Source: Geobacter sulfurreducens PCA | GTDB lineage: Bacteria; Desulfobacterota; Desulfuromonadia; Geobacterales; Geobacteraceae | Assembly: GCF_000007985.2 (NCBI RefSeq) | Contig: NC_002939.5 | Span: 3,270,001-3,302,000, forward strand | Direction of reading: 5' to 3' | DNA: 32,000 nt | In this document: piece by piece, positions 5,595 through 28,418 of the stretch | Layout of the letters: each line of letters starts with the position of its first letter | Numbering within the stretch: position 1 is the stretch's first letter | Notes under the pieces: model-generated | Database searches by the model: none | What the model saw: only the letters and a program-made list of their open reading frames with translations | What the model was told of the DNA's origin: nothing | Position numbers and translations under genes: made by a program

Positions 5595-6413
5595 TTACCG
5601 CCGCAGCCTCCGCAGGGTAAAGGCAAGGGCGAAAGCCAGGAAGTTGATCATGATAATTGTGGCGCCGGTGGGAAGGTTGGCCAGGAAGGAGACCACCACC
5701 CCGGTCACCACCGACAGGACGCCGAAGACGACAGCAAGGATGATGGCGGTCCGAAAGCCCCGCGCCAGCTGGAGCGAGGCCACTGCGGGCAGGATGAGGA
5801 GTGCGGAGATGAGCATGACCCCCACCACCTTCATGGCGAGCACCACCGTGAGGCCGGTCAGCAGCACCAGCACCCCGTTGATCCGGTCTACCCGGATGCC
5901 GGAGGTACGGGCCAGCTCCTCATCGAAGGTGATGGCGAAGAGTTCCCGGGAAAAGAGCCCCACCGCGATGACCACCACCAGAAAGAGAATCCCGGTCTGA
6001 ACCAGCTCAGAGGGGCTGATGGACAGGATGTTGCCGAAAAGGTAGCTGAACAGGTCAACATTGAATCCGCCCGCCATACTTGCCAGCATGATGCCGGTGG
6101 CAATGCCCAGGGACGAGACGATGCCGATGGCGGCATCGCCGTAGATGCGGGCCCGCTCAGCAAGGCGCAGGATGCCCAGAGCCGAAAGGAGCACGCAGGG
6201 AATGGCGGCCAGGGCCGCGTGGACCGACGGCAGACGGAAGAAGAGTGAAAGGGCCACGCTTCCGAAGGTCACATGGGCAAGTCCGTCACCGATAAGCGAC
6301 AGGCGGCGCAGCACCAGGAAGATGCCCAGGATGGCGCAGAGCGCTGCGATAAGCGACCCGGCAACCATGGCCCGCAGAAGAAACCCGTACTGGAAGATGT
6401 CGAGAAGCGTCAT
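5595..6413 (-). CDS. znuB: Zinc (metal) ABC transporter permease
   Basis: 272 aa polytopic membrane protein of the ZnuB/MntB type (FLLRAMVAGSLIAALCAILGIFLVLRRLSLIGDGLAHVTFG). Lies downstream of znuA and znuC. Confidence 0.85.
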   Translation of the reverse strand: MTLLDIFQYGFLLRAMVAGSLIAALCAILGIFLVLRRLSLIGDGLAHVTFGSVALSLFFRLPSVHAALAAIPCVLLSALGILRLAERARIYGDAAIGIVSSLGIATGIMLASMAGGFNVDLFSYLFGNILSISPSELVQTGILFLVVVIAVGLFSRELFAITFDEELARTSGIRVDRINGVLVLLTGLTVVLAMKVVGVMLISALLILPAVASLQLARGFRTAIILAVVFGVLSVVTGVVVSFLANLPTGATIIMINFLAFALAFTLRRLRR

Positions 6414-22104: not shown

Positions 22105-22647
22105 CTACCCCAGGATCGCCGGGAGGGGAACACCCGACGCAAGCATGGCCAGGGCCTGCTCCCGCAGTTCGTCCTTGCCCAGCTCTTCCTTGCCCACCAC
22201 TTCCTCCACGTCGATCCGCACGATGCCGGTGATGGCCAGTTTTTCCTCCGGGAAGGAACCCCAGGTACCGTCGGGCTGGTATTTGCGCATGAGACAGTCG
22301 AGGGCAAGCACCTTCTCGGCCGCCTCCTCAACCAATCGCGCCCTGCCCCGCATGATCACGCTGCGGTAGAGGTACTCGGCCCGGCAGGGGGTTTCCGTCG
22401 TTCCCCGCACATAGGCGATGGGCAGGTCCACCTCAAAGCAGACCCGGTCCTCGTGGCGGATATCGTCGAGCTTCTCCCCTTCCAGGGCACAGTGGAAATA
22501 GATCCGCCCCTCGTGCCAAGCGAAGTTGAGGGGCTTGATCCGGGGCCAGCCGTCGGCTCCCAGGGTGCCGAGCCGCCCCACGTGACAGGTGTCGAGCATC
22601 CGGCGGATGATGTCGAAATCGGTGATTCGCTTGTTGGCTTTGCGCAT
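22105..22647 (-). CDS. Pyridoxamine-5'-phosphate-oxidase-like (FMN-binding split-barrel) family protein
   Basis: 180 aa. ITDFDIIRRMLDTCHVGRLGTLGADGWPRIKPLNFAWHEGRIYFHCALEGEKL fits the PNPOx/Nim-type split-barrel N-terminus. Its ATG shares one nt with the cbiC stop (TAATG). Its stop lies 6 nt before the cbiD start. Confidence 0.8.
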   Translation of the reverse strand: MRKANKRITDFDIIRRMLDTCHVGRLGTLGADGWPRIKPLNFAWHEGRIYFHCALEGEKLDDIRHEDRVCFEVDLPIAYVRGTTETPCRAEYLYRSVIMRGRARLVEEAAEKVLALDCLMRKYQPDGTWGSFPEEKLAITGIVRIDVEEVVGKEELGKDELREQALAMLASGVPLPAILG

Positions 22648-23288
22648 TACCCCTCCATAGCCATGATGAGCAGGGCGTTCACCACCGCCGCCGCCACGTT
22701 GGACCCCCCCTTGCGTCCCCGGTTGGTGATGAAGGGGACTTCCGGGACCTCATGCTCCAGGGCCAGGAGCGCCTCTTTGCTCTCCGCGGCCCCAACGAAC
22801 CCCACCGGCAAGCCCACCACCAAGTCGGGACGCAGACCCTCTTCCCGCACCAGGCGGATCAGCTCGAAGAGGGCCGTGGGTGCGTTGCCGATGACGAAGA
22901 TGCCGTTACCCCGGTCCGACGCCCCCGCACGTAGAGCCAGGATAGAGCGGGTGATCCCCTGCTCCCGGGCCCGGCGTGCCACATCGGGATCAGCCACGAA
23001 ACAGGAGACGGAGATGCCGAATCGCTCCAGGCGCGGCTTGGCGATGCCCGACAGGGCCATGGTGGTGTCGGTGACGATGCCTCTTCCCGCCTTGAGCGCG
23101 GCCAGGGCGCGCGGCACGGCGTCGGGGGAGAAGACCATGCTCCGGGCATAGTCGAAATCGGCGGAGGTATGGATGACGCGGCGCACCACCGGCCACTGGT
23201 CCGGCCCCCAGGAGTGGGAGCCCGCTTCGGCATCGATGATCCGGAACGACTCGGCCTCGATCTCCTCGGGGCGGAGGTGGACCGACAT
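22647..23288 (-). CDS. cbiC: Cobalt-precorrin-8 methylmutase
   Basis: ATG at 23288 (TGATG overlap with the cbiX stop) gives MSVHLRPEEIEAESFRIID..., which aligns with the canonical CbiC N-terminus. VIHTSADFDY and GNAPTAL motifs are present. Confidence 0.9.
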   Translation of the reverse strand: MSVHLRPEEIEAESFRIIDAEAGSHSWGPDQWPVVRRVIHTSADFDYARSMVFSPDAVPRALAALKAGRGIVTDTTMALSGIAKPRLERFGISVSCFVADPDVARRAREQGITRSILALRAGASDRGNGIFVIGNAPTALFELIRLVREEGLRPDLVVGLPVGFVGAAESKEALLALEHEVPEVPFITNRGRKGGSNVAAAVVNALLIMAMEG

Positions 23289-23671
23289 CAGCGCCACCCC
23301 GTGGCGGCGAGGGCTTCGGCGATCCGGTCAGCCGCCACCTCGGCCAGCTTGCGGTGCACGCCCAGATGCCCTCCCATGGCGAACTCCACGGCAGGGTAAC
23401 GGGTGCGGGCCTCGGCCATCTCCTCGGGGAGGTCCTCCTGCACGTGGGCCCCCACAAAGAGGAAGTAGGGCATCAGCAGAACCCGCTCCGCGCCTTGGGC
23501 CACGCAGGCATCGATCCCTTGCTGGATGTCCGGCAGGTGCTGTTCCCGGAACGACACCTCCACAATCTCGAACCCAGTCATTTCCTTCACCATGGCGGCG
23601 ATCTCCCGCACGGCGTCATTCGCCTCGGGGATACGGCTGCCATGGGCCATCAACAGAATAGCAGTCTTCAT
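23288..23671 (-). CDS. cbiX: Sirohydrochlorin cobaltochelatase, short single-domain CbiX(S) type
   Basis: 127 aa. MKTAILLMAHGSRIPEANDA... and LLMPYFLFVGAHV are typical of the CbiX fold. AGGAG upstream. Confidence 0.85.
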   Translation of the reverse strand: MKTAILLMAHGSRIPEANDAVREIAAMVKEMTGFEIVEVSFREQHLPDIQQGIDACVAQGAERVLLMPYFLFVGAHVQEDLPEEMAEARTRYPAVEFAMGGHLGVHRKLAEVAADRIAEALAATGWR

Positions 23672-23672
23672 G

Positions 23673-24512
23673 TCAACTCCTTGTGGTTTCCATCAATTCC
23701 ATGATTTCCCGCCGGGCCTCGCCGATGGTGAGGGGCGTGCGCCGGAACGGGACACCATCTTCGTGCTTCAGGCGGTGGATGAGCTCGGCTATGTGGGGAA
23801 GCCGCAGCTTGACGCTCTCCATCTCGGCCGGAGCGGTGAAGACCTCCTCGGGCGGCCCGCCGCGAACGATCCGCCCCCGGCTCAGGATGTAGAGCCGGTG
23901 AAGGAACAGGGGCACCAGATCGACGCTGTGGGTCGCCATGACGATGGTCACCCCCTCCTGGCGGTTGAGCCGCGTGAGCAGCTCCATCATCCGGTACTCT
24001 CCCATGGGATCGAGGCCGGCGGTGGGTTCGTCCATGAGGAGCACCTCATGCCCCATGGCCAGGAGCCCTGCGATGCAGGCGCGCTTTTTCTGGCCGTAGC
24101 TCAGGTGGTGGATCTGCTTGGCCGCGGCGCCCGCCAGGTCGACGGCTTCCAGGGCCCGCTCCACCCGCGCCTTGACCTCGGCCTCGGCAAATCCCATGTT
24201 GCGGGGGCCGAAGGCCACATCCTCGAAGACCGTGTGGGCGAACAACTGATCGTCCGGGTTCTGGAACACGAGCCCGACCGTGCGGTAGATATCCTTCGGC
24301 TGGAGGCTCCGCACGTCCCGGCCGTCCAGGAGCACGCTGCCGTCGTACTCCCTGATCAGCCCGTCCATGATCTTGAGCAGTGTCGTCTTGCCCGAGCCGT
24401 TGGAGCCGAGGATGCCGCAAAATTCTCCCCGCGCCACCTGGAAACGGATATCCGACAGGGCCACGGTACCGTCGGGATAGGCATAGGCCTTCAGGTCCAC
24501 GGAAAACCTCAC
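23673..24512 (-). CDS. cbiO: Cobalt ECF transporter ATPase component
   Basis: 279 aa with Walker A GSNGSGKTT, signature LSYGQKKR and Walker B LLMDEP. The GTG start overlaps the cbiQ stop (GTGA). Confidence 0.9.
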   Translation of the reverse strand: MRFSVDLKAYAYPDGTVALSDIRFQVARGEFCGILGSNGSGKTTLLKIMDGLIREYDGSVLLDGRDVRSLQPKDIYRTVGLVFQNPDDQLFAHTVFEDVAFGPRNMGFAEAEVKARVERALEAVDLAGAAAKQIHHLSYGQKKRACIAGLLAMGHEVLLMDEPTAGLDPMGEYRMMELLTRLNRQEGVTIVMATHSVDLVPLFLHRLYILSRGRIVRGGPPEEVFTAPAEMESVKLRLPHIAELIHRLKHEDGVPFRRTPLTIGEARREIMELMETTRS

Positions 24513-25264
24513 TGCATCCCCCAGAGGGTTCCCATGGCCACCACGAAGAGGGCGGACAGAGCCACCTCGGCCGGCCGGAACGGACGGTGCCTGAACAGCG
24601 GCAGGTTCCCGTCGTACCCCCTCTGAACCATGGCGGTGGTAATGGTCTGGCTGTTGTCGAAGGCCTTAAGAACCAGGGCGCCGGCCAAGGTGCCGAAGGA
24701 GCGCATCCCCCGGCGCAGCCCGCTGTAGCCCAGGCGATTCCGCTGGGCCGCGTGGATCACCTGGGCGTCGTCCAGGAGCAGGAACAGGTAGCGCCAGGCG
24801 AACAGCGCCACCTCGATGAAGCTGCGCGGCACCCGCAGCCATGCCAGGGCCGCCATCAGGTCGGTGAACGAGGAGGAGAAGCCGACCGCCGATACAACCG
24901 ACACGGCGGCGGCAATGCGGCCGGCGATGAGGAGCCCTTCCCGCAGTCCCTCCCGGTATGCGGTAAGCTCCAGCCAGGGCAGCTGGAGTGTGAAAAGCGG
25001 CGTGACGCCGCTGAAGAAAAGCTTGAGCAGGAGGACCACGGCGGCGATGAACGCCGGTTCCGCAAAGCGGAGCAGGATCAGGCGGAGCGGCACCCCCAAC
25101 GAGACGACGATCCCCAGGGAGAGGATCGCCGCCAGCAGCGGGAACAGCCCGCCGGTGCAGCTGATGACCATGGCGAGCAGTGCCCCGGCCGTCAGGAGCT
25201 TGACCCGCGGGTCGAGCCGCGACAGGGGATGATCGGCCGGAGACGCGCTGAGGACGTGCTTCAT
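24509..25264 (-). CDS. cbiQ: Cobalt ECF transporter transmembrane (T) component
   Basis: 251 aa polytopic protein. LDPRVKLL near the N-terminus and the AQRNRLGY region are typical of CbiQ/EcfT. Its ATG overlaps the upstream ORF stop (ATGA). Confidence 0.85.
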   Translation of the reverse strand: MKHVLSASPADHPLSRLDPRVKLLTAGALLAMVISCTGGLFPLLAAILSLGIVVSLGVPLRLILLRFAEPAFIAAVVLLLKLFFSGVTPLFTLQLPWLELTAYREGLREGLLIAGRIAAAVSVVSAVGFSSSFTDLMAALAWLRVPRSFIEVALFAWRYLFLLLDDAQVIHAAQRNRLGYSGLRRGMRSFGTLAGALVLKAFDNSQTITTAMVQRGYDGNLPLFRHRPFRPAEVALSALFVVAMGTLWGMQ

Positions 25265-25776
25265 TCGGCAATTCCCTTCGCCGCCATGTAGTCGCGAAGC
25301 CGGTTGGCATGATCGCGGTCATCATTGTTCAACGTCTGAAACACCTTGAGGGTCCAGGAGGGAGCCCGGCTCTCCATGGCCCGCTGAAAGTGGAGCTCCC
25401 CCGCCGACTCCTCAAGGACGAGAGCGGTCCTGAAGGCTTCCTCCCGGCTGGGAGGGGTCTGTTCGTAACGGTCGAACAGGGTCTCCAGCTCCCGGTTCTT
25501 CTCCACCAGGGGTTCGAGGGATTCGGGCAGGAGCTCCCGGGGGAACCTCCCCTCGGGCAGGAAAAGGCGGCGACCGTTTCGCAGGAGGTTCGCGTGGTTC
25601 TCCTCCTCGATGGAAAGCGTCTGCCAGAACTCACCGTCATCGGGAAAGAGGTCCTGGAACAGGGCGTAGAGCCGGGATGCGTTGAGCTCCAGCGCGATCG
25701 CCTCGTTCACGAGCCGCACCAGCTCTTCAATCTCGCGGTCATTGCCCTGGACCCAGGAGGTTTCAAGTATGGTCAT
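25261..25776 (-). CDS. Ferritin-like / rubrerythrin-like four-helix-bundle protein (hypothetical) embedded in cbiMNQO
   Basis: ATG at 25776 with GGAG 8 nt upstream gives 171 aa. There are two E...(about 30 aa)...[E/D]xxH pairs: ALELNAS...EEENHANLL and LVLEESAGE...DDRDHANRL. It overlaps the cbiMN 3' end by 14 nt and cbiQ by ATGA. The upstream part of the track's 270-aa ORF is antisense-frame noise inside cbiMN. Confidence 0.65.
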   Translation of the reverse strand: MTILETSWVQGNDREIEELVRLVNEAIALELNASRLYALFQDLFPDDGEFWQTLSIEEENHANLLRNGRRLFLPEGRFPRELLPESLEPLVEKNRELETLFDRYEQTPPSREEAFRTALVLEESAGELHFQRAMESRAPSWTLKVFQTLNNDDRDHANRLRDYMAAKGIAE

Positions 25777-26803
25777 CGTACGTTCTCCGTTCCGCCACCA
25801 GCATACGCCAGAAATAGCCCGCCGCAAAGCCCCCGACTGTGCCGGCCAGCAGAAAAACGAAGAGAAGCAGGTCACCCTGGTCGGTATTGATGAGGGGGTC
25901 CCGCGGTTCACGGCCGTGTTCCGCGGCAATCTTTTCCACAACGGTTTCGTCCACGCCAGGCCATTTTTCCGATGCGCGCGACGGTCCCGCCACAAGGAGC
26001 GAGGCGAGCAGGCAAAACAGCGCCAGCATGACCACGGTTGCCCGGCGGGGACCGGCTCCCGGGCCACCGGCATCGACCACCCCCATTTTCGCCAGCAGAT
26101 CGGGGCGCTTGCGGTGGAGCAGGACCACCATACCGGCGGTCATGGCCCCTTCCAGCACGCCGAGAGGAAGCTGGGTCGGGACAAAGGCGGCAACGATCTT
26201 CAAGAACAGCGGGTAAAACGGCTCACTCCCGCGCACGCCCGAGGACAGCTCCAGGGCAGTGGTCAGGTAGGTGGCCCAGTCTGCCAGCAGCCCGGCGACA
26301 AAGGCGGCCACCGCAAGGCCCGCGCCCAGCCGGCGCATGCCCCGGAAGACGAACCAGCCGGCAAAGGAGCCCGCCACCCCCATGGACACCACGTCGGCGC
26401 CGAGCGTTGAAAGCCCGCCGTGGGCCAGAAAGAGGGCCTGGATGAGGAGCGCTACCGTGGTGATGACCACGCTGACCAGGGGCCCCACCAGGATCGCGGC
26501 GATCCCCGTGCCGCAGGGATGGGAGCAGGTACCGGCGGTGGGCACCGGAATCGGCATGCAGGAGATGATGAATACCACCGCCGCCATGAGTCCCACCAGG
26601 GGCTTGAAGGAGAGATCGTGGCGGGACAGCTCGTTCACCCGCCGAATTCCCAGGGCCAGAAAGGGCGCCGCCACGGCGAACCAGAGCGCCGCCCACCCCA
26701 GGGGGAGGATTCCCTCGGAGATGTGCATGGCGTGGGCGGGCCCGGCCAGCAGCATTGCGCCAATGATTGCCGAACCGGCAGCATATAAGGTAATTCGTTT
26801 CAT
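25763..26803 (-). CDS. cbiMN: Fused cobalt ECF transporter substrate-capture components CbiM-CbiN
   Basis: 346 aa. Signal-like leader MKRITLYAAGSAIIGAMLLAGPAHA, then MHISEGILP, the CbiM N-terminal metal-binding motif. About 245 aa of CbiM is followed by a two-TM CbiN-like tail (VVMLALFCLLASLLVA...WPGVDETVVEKIA...LLLFVFLLAGTVGGFAAGYFWR). Confidence 0.9.
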   Translation of the reverse strand: MKRITLYAAGSAIIGAMLLAGPAHAMHISEGILPLGWAALWFAVAAPFLALGIRRVNELSRHDLSFKPLVGLMAAVVFIISCMPIPVPTAGTCSHPCGTGIAAILVGPLVSVVITTVALLIQALFLAHGGLSTLGADVVSMGVAGSFAGWFVFRGMRRLGAGLAVAAFVAGLLADWATYLTTALELSSGVRGSEPFYPLFLKIVAAFVPTQLPLGVLEGAMTAGMVVLLHRKRPDLLAKMGVVDAGGPGAGPRRATVVMLALFCLLASLLVAGPSRASEKWPGVDETVVEKIAAEHGREPRDPLINTDQGDLLLFVFLLAGTVGGFAAGYFWRMLVAERRTYDDHT

Positions 26804-26929
26804 TGCGTGCTCCCTATGAAGTTATGATCCGTCGCCGTTCTTGCCCTCGCGTGCCGGAACGACCTCATAGCCGCAGTGGATATGCTCTGCTCCCCATACA
26901 ACCTCCCTTCCCCTCGGTCGGAGTGTGTT

Positions 26930-27085
26930 GTCGCCTTCCAGCCAGGTCTCCTGGCTCGGGGATCATCCCGCCTGCCGCGCCTTCCCGTCCCTTCGGACAG
27001 TGGCATCACTGCGGCATCGGTCCCCCCTCACAGTTGCGGGGCAGCACCGGTATTGCACCGGTTTCCCTTACGCCGGAAGGATGCT
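26930..27085 (-). promoter_or_regulatory. Cobalamin (AdoCbl) riboswitch upstream of cbiMN
   Basis: The minus strand reads TAAGGGAAACCGGTGCAATACCGGTGCTGCCCCGCAACTGTGAGG...GCCACTGTCCGAAGGGACGGGAAGGCG...GAGCCAGGAGACCTGGC. All conserved core blocks are present, including the B12 box (plus 26941-26957). P1 is CCTTCC (27074-27079) paired with GGAAGG (26934-26939). Confidence 0.92.
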
Positions 27086-27110
27086 TCTTCAGATTGAAAC
27101 TGCCTGAGCC

Positions 27111-28418
27111 CTACACCTTATCCCCCCTGAGATCGCCGGCAAACAGCCTGCCGGCCCCCCGGGAGGCGCAGAAGTCGCCGCACATGGTGCAGGTGGCCTC
27201 ATCCTCGGGAGTACGGCTGGCCCTGATCGCCCGGGCGTCCTCTGGATAGAGGGCCAGCTCGAACTGCCTCTGCCAGTCCAGGTCGCGACGGGCCTTGCTC
27301 ATCTCCCGGTCCCGCTCGCGCCCCTTCTCCGGGTACTTGTTCATGTCGCCGATGTAGGCGGCGACCCGGGCCGCCTTTACCCCCTGGCGGACGTCCTCTT
27401 CGTTGGGGAGGGCCAGGTGCTCGGCCGGGGTGATGTAGCAGATCAGGTCGGCGCCGAAGCGGCTCGACTGGGCCGCGCCAATGGCGGCGGTGATGTGGTC
27501 GAAGCCGGGGGCCACGTCGGTGGAGATGGGCCCGAGCATATAGTAGGGTGCGCCGCCGCTCATCCGCTTCTGGAGCTGGATGTTCCCCTCCACCTCGTCC
27601 AGGGGGACGTGACCGGGGCCCTCCACCAGCATCTGGCAGCCCATCTCGCGCCCCATCTCCGCCAGTTCGCAGTTGATCAGCAGCTCCTGGATCTGGGCCC
27701 GGTCCGATGAATCGTGGATGGCGCCGGCCCGCAGGCCGTTGCCCAGGGAAAGGACCGTGTCGTATTTCTTCAGGATACCGACCACCCGGTCGAACTGTTC
27801 GTAGAGGGGATTCTCGCGGCCGTTGGCCATCATCCAGCCCACCATGCTCACCCCTCCCTTTGAGACGAGGCCGCCGTAGCGGTACCCCTGGCGACGGAGC
27901 CGTTCGATGGTGTAGAGATTGATGCCGCAGTGGACCGCCATGAAGGCCATGCCGTCGGCGCACTGGCGCTCAATCAGGTCAAAGAGCATCTCAGGGTCGA
28001 GCCGGTTGGGGTCGCCGTATTTCCTCGCCGCCTCGCAGAAGGCCTGGTAGAGCGGAACGTTTCCCACCGGCAGGTCCACGGCCGCGATGACCTCGCGCCG
28101 GACCCGGTCCAGGTCGCCGCCCACGGACAGCTCCATGAGGGTGTCGGCGCCTGACTCCTGGGCGGCCCGGGCCTTGCGCACCTCGGCCTCGTAGTCAACG
28201 ATGTCCGATGAGGTGCCGATGGAGGCATTCACCTTGGTCCGCAGCCCCTTGCCGATGCCGACTGCCTTTGGCGCGCGCACGTGGTTCCAGGGGATGACGA
28301 CCTTCCCCTCGGCCACCATCCGGCAGACATACTCGGGGGAGACGTGCTCCTCCGCGGCCACGGCCGCCATCTGAGGGGTAATGATGCCCTCGCGGGCCTG
28401 TTCGATCTGGGTTTTCAC
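27111..28418 (-). CDS. bzaF: ThiC-family radical SAM enzyme in cob context: 5-hydroxybenzimidazole synthase (BzaF-type)
   Basis: 435 aa ThiC paralog ([15 protein letters not shown]-terminal CTMCGDFCA Fe-S motif). It is translationally coupled to cbiA (GTGA overlap) inside the cobamide locus. No TPP riboswitch is visible. Confidence 0.8.

Follow-up and report, generated by a model that had tools for sequence, protein, structure and literature searches.

The genes of the energy-coupling factor (ECF) cobalt importer, cbiM, cbiN, cbiQ and cbiO, are normally contiguous, and the locus described here raises the question of what a further open reading frame (ORF), coding for a protein of 171 aa, is doing among them in Geobacter sulfurreducens PCA. 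The ORF (25261-25776, minus strand) was studied in a window of 32,000 nucleotides (contig NC_002939.5, positions 3,270,001 to 3,302,000; positions given without a locus number are those of the window). A first-pass annotation of this stretch had proposed a ferritin-like di-metal protein, made as a stoichiometric part of the importer. We find that the product belongs to the rubrerythrin/erythrin branch of the ferritin-like superfamily, is of the erythrin type in having no rubredoxin domain, and carries an intact di-metal site. It is a new, so far uncharacterised member of a known superfamily, and as part of the operon it is optional, an accessory di-metal protein confined to one Geobacter sub-lineage. 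The operon itself, in which a gene for a cytoplasmic ferritin-like protein is embedded among those of an ECF cobalt importer, is in turn a new form of a known system.

The protein and its di-metal site

The ORF product is a soluble, acidic, cytoplasmic protein of 20 kDa (isoelectric point 4.7) with no cysteine and three histidines, all of which are conserved. It has no signal peptide and no hydrophobic segment, the maximum of the 19-residue Kyte-Doolittle mean being 0.9. The AlphaFold2 monomer model is all-helical, as had been predicted earlier, with a mean predicted local distance difference test score (pLDDT) of 90.2 and a predicted template modelling score (pTM) of 0.85. The modelled helices span residues 9-43, 45-72, 111-135 and 141-167, and an extra helix (88-106) is present between helices B and C. 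In a Foldseek comparison with the PDB, the 50 best matches listed are ferritins, bacterioferritins, Dps-like or di-iron carboxylate proteins. The scores are weak, with a best E-value of 0.057 and template modelling scores (TM-scores) of 0.5-0.63, and because all E-values lie above 0.05 the fold assignment rests on the consistent class of the matches together with the sequence profiles. Two features argue against a cage-forming ferritin: the extra helix, modelled where a long B-C loop would lie, and the low scores of the fold comparison.

The Pfam comparison that the first-pass annotation had suggested gives a sub-threshold match to Rubrerythrin (PF02915; 17.0 bits against a gathering threshold of 22.8, E 0.0078) which extends over practically the full profile (3-135 of 137). 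The same profile is matched by 41 of 68 sampled relatives (E<0.1; best 1.2e-6), and some relatives fused to other domains score 23-27.7 bits. NCBIfam holds no family for the ORF. As a single sequence the protein finds marginal matches only in the PDB, whereas a profile of the family finds 2fzf at 3e-6, the N-terminal domain of 3ezu at 6.5e-6 and symerythrin at 2.8e-5, with the ligand columns and the ExxH motifs in register. At E<1e-3 an exhaustive profile search collected 2018 cluster representatives, of which 226 pass E<1e-30. The proteins collected are nearly all single-domain and 150-170 aa long. The family, which amounts to about 2000 clusters at 50% identity, consists mostly of stand-alone proteins of ~157 aa from Bacteroidales, Desulfobacterota, Cloacimonadota, Fermentibacteria, NC10 and Caldithrix, almost only anaerobes. 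Where public records give a name, it is 'hypothetical protein' or 'rubrerythrin family protein'. A true rubrerythrin is ruled out, since the protein is single-domain and has no cysteine, and hence no rubredoxin-like Cys4 domain.

Conservation was counted in 161 family representatives. The ligand pattern E ... ExxH / E ... (E/D)xxH is present as E30, E58xxH61, E122 and D153xxH156, and these putative ligands are near-invariant: E58 and H61 occur in all 161 representatives, E30, E122 and H156 in 159 each, and D153 in 142, with Glu in its place in 6 more. With such near-invariance the motifs cannot be put down to chance in a protein rich in Glu, and the ferritin/rubrerythrin ligand pattern read earlier from the single sequence is upheld. 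Four further residues, either second-shell or additionally conserved, are Y37 (160/161), E57 (160/161), E127 (157/161) and H129 (137/161). A Tyr located 7 residues after the first Glu, as Y37 is here, is a hallmark of the iron/O2-reactive centres of ferritins, bacterioferritins and rubrerythrins. The metal site accordingly looks, by its residues, like a di-iron site. What can be read from it is a generic di-metal site, with no sign of cobalt specialisation. Comparison of the proteins encoded in cobalt operons, which form one clade (see below), with the rest of the family reveals three differing positions (A38, Q41, and Q52 in place of Trp), none of which is a ligand residue.

These features bring in a first alternative, namely a generic rubrerythrin-like di-iron scavenger of peroxide or O2, or a ferroxidase, with the function usual for the family, which would be co-expressed to protect the O2-sensitive anaerobic corrin pathway and cobalt import, or would merely hitchhike in the operon. 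The ligands, the Tyr at +7 and an extra Glu on helix C resemble the centres of rubrerythrin, symerythrin and ferroxidases, the near confinement of the family to anaerobes fits a scavenger, and so do the unchanged ligands of the in-operon clade. On the other hand, the protein carries neither a rubredoxin domain nor another electron-donor domain. With the genomic evidence given below also taken into account, we regard this alternative as rather doubtful.

The best profile and fold matches are symerythrin (3qhb), the P. furiosus PF1190-like protein (2fzf) and T. maritima TM1526 (1vjx). Like the ORF product, all three are single-domain four-helix bundles of ~150-180 aa with the E...ExxH/E...(E/D)xxH pattern, the Tyr at +7 and no rubredoxin domain. 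The similarity is remote (E 3e-6 to 3e-5, TM-score about 0.5-0.6), and the ORF product differs from them in the helix 88-106, in having D153 instead of Glu and in the conserved E57, E127 and H129. To our knowledge, no physiological role has been established for these three relatives, and none of them has been reported in a metal-importer operon.

Position in the cobalt operon and in related operons

The gene is tightly fitted between its neighbours. Its start lies inside the cbiMN fusion (25763-26803, minus strand), whose stop at 25763 leaves an overlap of 14 nt, and it is preceded by its own Shine-Dalgarno sequence, a GGAG (25785-25788, minus strand) located 8 nt before the ATG within the 3' end of cbiMN. 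At the other end the ATGA at 25264-25261 combines the TGA of the ORF with the ATG of cbiQ. The length of the ORF and these junctions, all described in the first-pass annotation, are confirmed by the sequence. The list of ORFs also allows a longer in-frame version from 26073, and the start at 25776 is preferred because homologue alignments and the GGAG fit it. Elements of the GGAG/GGGGAG type precede the orthologues in L001-L003 as well (L-numbers denote loci with relatives of the ORF or of the operon, and P-numbers representatives from the profile search). The ratio of nonsynonymous to synonymous substitution rates (dN/dS) against L062, where the protein is 87% identical, is 0.17 for the ORF, compared with 0.18 for cbiMN, 0.165 for cbiQ, 0.09 for cbiO and 0.016 for cbiX. 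These values show purifying selection on the ORF, which is thus a real gene; CP010430.1 codes for an identical protein.

An orthologue occupies this position between cbiN and cbiQ in L001-L004, L059, L060, L062, L064, L066 and L092, with protein identities of 57-96%, and in L063 the family gene directly adjoins cbiQ, giving 11 other loci in all with a placement like that in the window. The position is taken in loci with a cbiMN fusion as well as in loci with separate cbiM and cbiN genes. L001, L059 and L062 share the ATGA overlap with cbiQ, and the remaining junctions are short. The in-operon proteins group as one clade in a neighbour-joining tree of the 161 representatives, which indicates a single capture of the gene between cbiN and cbiQ in a Geobacteraceae sub-lineage. 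Such retention between transporter subunits, with translational coupling and down to 57% identity, speaks against the scavenger.

The gene is an optional part of the operon. An otherwise identical operon without the ORF occurs in G. pickeringii, Geomobilimonas luticola, Geobacter sp. AOG1 and a JGI metagenome-assembled genome (MAG) (L055-L058), and these four relatives bear out that cbiM, cbiN, cbiQ and cbiO normally stand together. In G. pickeringii cbiM and cbiN are fused and cbiQ begins 5 nt later. CbiQ is 65-73% identical to that of the window in the measured carriers (L001-L004) and 65-67% in the non-carriers, so that the presence of the ORF is patchy among relatives of similar distance. 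At >=62% identity there are >100 CbiQ clusters, against 13 clusters of the ORF. A core CbiMNQO subunit is ruled out by the absence of the ORF from the cbiM(N)-cbiQ junction in the four relatives. Across 131 related loci the cbi operon setting is found only in the monophyletic Geobacteraceae clade (>=57% identity). Co-occurrence with cbiMNQO, which the first-pass annotation had asked to be surveyed, is thus confined to this clade.

All genes of the operon lie on the minus strand. At the upstream end is a ThiC-like radical-SAM gene of the bzaF type (27111-28418), followed by a cobalamin riboswitch (26923-27122; Rfam RF00174, 104.3 bits, E 2.4e-25, full model 1-189). Then come the cbiMN fusion, coding for the S component of the importer (Pfam CbiM 2.8e-54; NCBIfam NF006184 8.1e-79), the ORF, cbiQ for the T component (24509-25264; Pfam CbiQ 1.9e-37) and cbiO for the ATPase (23673-24512; Pfam ABC_tran 7.8e-32), which shares 4 nt with the end of cbiQ. 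A small cbiX cobaltochelatase gene (23288-23671; Pfam CbiX 8e-31) starts 2 nt past cbiO, and further on are cbiC, a PNPOx-like gene and cbiD. No minus-strand terminator-like site was found within cbiMN-cbiX, which together with the riboswitch upstream indicates one transcription unit. The riboswitch aptamer starts within the last 12 nt of the ThiC-like gene, and its position gives the cbiMN-cbiX unit its own B12 control right behind that gene. This riboswitch has been listed as GSU3004.1 in G. sulfurreducens, with 'no match' for G. metallireducens (PMC2700814).

The N-terminus of the cbiMN product has a signal peptide followed by MHISEG. Its CbiN half (25763-26060, the C-terminal 100 aa) finds no Pfam or NCBIfam CbiN match and contains two transmembrane segments as in CbiN, with hydropathy peaks at 252-278 and 310-332. 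The split cbiN genes of relatives (87-106 aa) are likewise without a Pfam match, and the CbiN-like half looks like a divergent CbiN subfamily. The literature on the Geobacter cbiMNQO cluster (PMC545781, PMC2700814, PMC7726332) describes the cluster, the cbiMN fusion as GSU3004 (PMC7726332), CbiX as GSU3000 and BzaF as GSU3005, and these papers do not mention the extra ORF. From the numbering of the locus tags the ORF is probably GSU3003; a literature search for 'GSU3003' returned no match, and GSU3002-3004 are not listed in the supplementary data of a cobalt transcriptome study of G. sulfurreducens.

A separate observation concerns the PNPOx-like gene, which codes for a 180-aa PNPOx/FMN-binding-like protein (22105-22647, minus strand) between cbiC and cbiD. 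It is present in L055, L056, L057, L059 and L092 and missing in L058, L060 and L066. G. sulfurreducens has been reported to lack a recognisable CbiJ, the precorrin-6 reductase (PMC7726332), and the flavoprotein-like gene could stand in for it as a non-orthologous replacement.

The layout suggests a second alternative, in which the protein would be a dedicated cytoplasmic cobalt acceptor or metallochaperone that docks on CbiQ/CbiO, receives Co(II) at the di-metal site and passes it to CbiX. Co-translation with importer subunits, the chelatase gene which follows directly, control by the B12 riboswitch and the acidic, soluble nature of the protein all agree with such a role. It also has a precedent in MbfA, where a cytoplasmic ferritin-like domain is needed for the transport of iron by a VIT1-type membrane domain (PMC7762939). 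The likeness is one of arrangement: a ferritin-like di-metal domain in the cytoplasm goes with a membrane transporter of metal, by function in MbfA and by gene position here. MbfA, the membrane-bound erythrin-VIT1 ferritin of alpha-proteobacteria, has the domain fused to the transporter and exports iron, whereas the ORF product is a separate, optional polypeptide beside an ECF importer. The three clade-specific substitutions, including W52Q near the helix B ligands, could alter access of the metal. Against this, the gene is dispensable in sister lineages that have the same importer and chelatase, the rest of the family is unlinked to cobalt, and the ligand sphere is identical to that of the relatives outside cobalt operons. 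No such component of CbiMNQO is reported in the literature that we found. A dedicated chaperone is in our judgement unlikely.

Additional lineage-specific genes in ECF transporter operons have been described before, namely NikK and NikL in the nikMNQO operons of some delta-proteobacteria (PMC545781). Those proteins have N-terminal transmembrane segments and act extracytoplasmically, in contrast to the ORF product, which belongs to another fold family. A component of the NikK/NikL type is ruled out by the low maximal hydropathy and the lack of a signal peptide.

The family outside the cobalt operon

Outside the Geobacteraceae clade, where the relatives are 39-55% identical, no cbi genes are present within 6 kb in 47 genome and 75 metagenome loci. 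When 15 cbi/cob proteins of the window, together with BtuB, BtuG and BtuJ, were used as tblastn queries against all loci, cbi genes appeared in the Geobacteraceae clade only and btu genes in one Bacteroidota lineage only. Rfam detects no cobalamin riboswitch in 43 stand-alone loci. The neighbours of the 47 stand-alone genome loci include no recurring functional partner; they are mixed, with UDG-like, PPK2, M24 peptidase, aro, CrcB, Nqr and sugar ABC genes, and the ABC ATPases near some of these loci are of sugar or exporter types, not ECF. The proposal that the protein is a stoichiometric part of the importer is disfavoured by this picture, given that the ORF is absent from four otherwise identical operons and most of the family is unlinked to cobalt or B12, and likewise by the unchanged ligands of the in-operon clade and the Tyr at +7, which is typical of iron/O2 ferroxidase centres. 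For the scavenger the same survey cuts both ways: the lack of a cobalt/B12 context outside the Geobacter clade favours it, while recurring oxidative-stress neighbours were not found either.

The Bacteroidota lineage deserves separate description. In 7 loci the family gene stands tail-to-tail with a btuJ-like/btuB/btuG cobamide-uptake operon (L025, 6472-12457; L026, L027, L034 and L037; and L035 and L047 with ClpB in between). The operon comprises genes for a DUF4465/BtuJ-like protein, a Por-tail protein, BtuB, BtuG and a UDG-like protein; in L025 BtuG matches 8p97_B at 1e-116 and BtuB matches 8bmx_C at 1e-111. An intervening neighbour protein is 77-86% identical over 9 loci, 2 of which are without btuBG. 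Because this identity marks the synteny of a single lineage, the juxtaposition is taken as a single event; the two units are convergent.

These loci bear on a third alternative, in which the protein would handle corrinoids or tetrapyrroles, as a carrier or redox partner for corrin intermediates and not for cobalt ions. It could appeal to two independent juxtapositions with corrinoid loci, the Geobacter cbi operon and the Bacteroidota btu operon, and to the binding of tetrapyrroles at dimer interfaces by some ferritin-family proteins (PMC13168243). Since the Bacteroidota adjacency is convergent, not co-transcribed and the synteny of one lineage, no riboswitch is seen near the stand-alone members, and no position for a heme-type ligand was identified, we consider a corrinoid handler very improbable.

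A different setting is seen in relatives that are joined to signalling domains. In 7 of the 131 loci (L014, L113, L114, L117, L123, L130 and L137) the family domain carries a C-terminal extension of ~127 aa. The extension is a response-regulator receiver domain (REC) in both of those scanned, L014 (1457-2302) and L113 (5989-6843), and also in P0038; the five further loci have the same ~127-aa extension by length. P0025 consists of an HTH_3 domain, the family domain and then an Hpt domain. The signalling-fused relatives are 43-48% identical, and all ligand residues are kept in the two fusions that were aligned, P0025 and P0038. In L046 the family gene overlaps a gene for a PocR-PAS hybrid histidine kinase. 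Part of the family, this suggests, works in signal transduction. The fusions to REC, HTH and Hpt are unusual for detoxification enzymes, and in this respect they count against the scavenger.

A comparable signalling setting is provided by a protein of G. sulfurreducens itself, the GGDEF protein 3ezu, whose N-terminal domain (residues 7-107) is a remote relative of the ORF product. In the HMMER alignment this domain has Thr at the position of E58 and Phe at that of Y37, which suggests that it may have lost the metal site and be a metal-free sensor version of the fold; the window protein, by comparison, stands alone. Separately, a c-di-GMP-I riboswitch (5663-5752) was noticed in L017, a Desulfobacterales MAG, ~2.2 kb downstream of the family gene. 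The gene behind it groups by BLAST with large sensor-kinase-like ORFs, and the riboswitch is probably unrelated to the family gene.

A possible role beside the importer

A role as cobalt acceptor, buffer or regulator, as the first-pass annotation had put forward, is conceivable, and the literature that we found describes no cytoplasmic partner of CbiMNQO, in line with the annotation's remark that none of these roles is described for this importer. The domain fusions lend some support to the regulator idea. We tentatively propose that the protein is a metal- or oxidant-responsive di-metal switch or buffer which tunes cobalt import and hand-over. Because all ligand residues are unchanged, recruitment into the operon would have altered the timing of production, through the B12 riboswitch and co-translation with the importer, and not the chemistry. 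The centre would most likely be di-iron, possibly able to take Co(II), and would be loaded or oxidised according to the level of metal or oxidant in the cytoplasm. The loaded or oxidised protein would then tune or restrain cobalt import and the hand-over to CbiX post-translationally, acting as a sensor or buffer accessory and neither as a core subunit nor as a dedicated cobalt chaperone. We prefer a switch or sensor because relatives are fused to signalling domains, because the family gene in L046 overlaps a kinase gene and because 3ezu is among the nearest solved relatives. Taken as a whole, the account of a captured, optional di-metal protein that works by such a mechanism has, in our view, somewhat less than an even chance of being right.

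Several points weigh against it. Unrelated inserts are tolerated in the cbi operons of relatives, such as a PDDEXK_3 nuclease-like gene between cbiQ and cbiO (L056, 3740-4180) as well as a BrnT/BrnA toxin-antitoxin pair that separates the ThiC-like gene from cbiM (L060, 2494-2968). A place in the operon therefore says little, by itself, about a shared function, and the acceptance of such inserts also favours a scavenger. The Tyr at +7 and the rubrerythrin-like ligands would fit a plain peroxide- or O2-reactive di-iron enzyme equally well. The signalling fusions are a small minority, ~90% of the family being stand-alone with unrelated neighbours, and in REC fusions the domain other than REC is usually the output and not the sensor.

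A more far-reaching form of the idea makes the protein a cytoplasmic di-metal gatekeeper or chaperone, and thereby the first accessory subunit of an ECF metal importer that is soluble. It would take Co(II) from CbiMNQO and deliver it to CbiX, or would shut the importer when loaded, and the family as a whole would be an unrecognised class of metal-handling or sensing proteins linked to cobalt or corrinoids in anaerobes. We consider this form decidedly unlikely.

For the question of how cobalt brought in by ECF importers avoids mis-metallating iron enzymes and reaches the chelatase, the gene described here offers a concrete test case in a genetically tractable host that is rich in heme and Fe-S proteins. 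Should the product prove to be no more than a hitchhiker or a di-iron scavenger co-expressed with the importer, the finding would be a minor point of annotation. The association of the gene with the cobalt operon is real, conserved within the clade and testable, and it is also lineage-specific. It would give a first functional handle on a large erythrin-like family which is widespread in anaerobes and is sometimes wired into two-component signalling.

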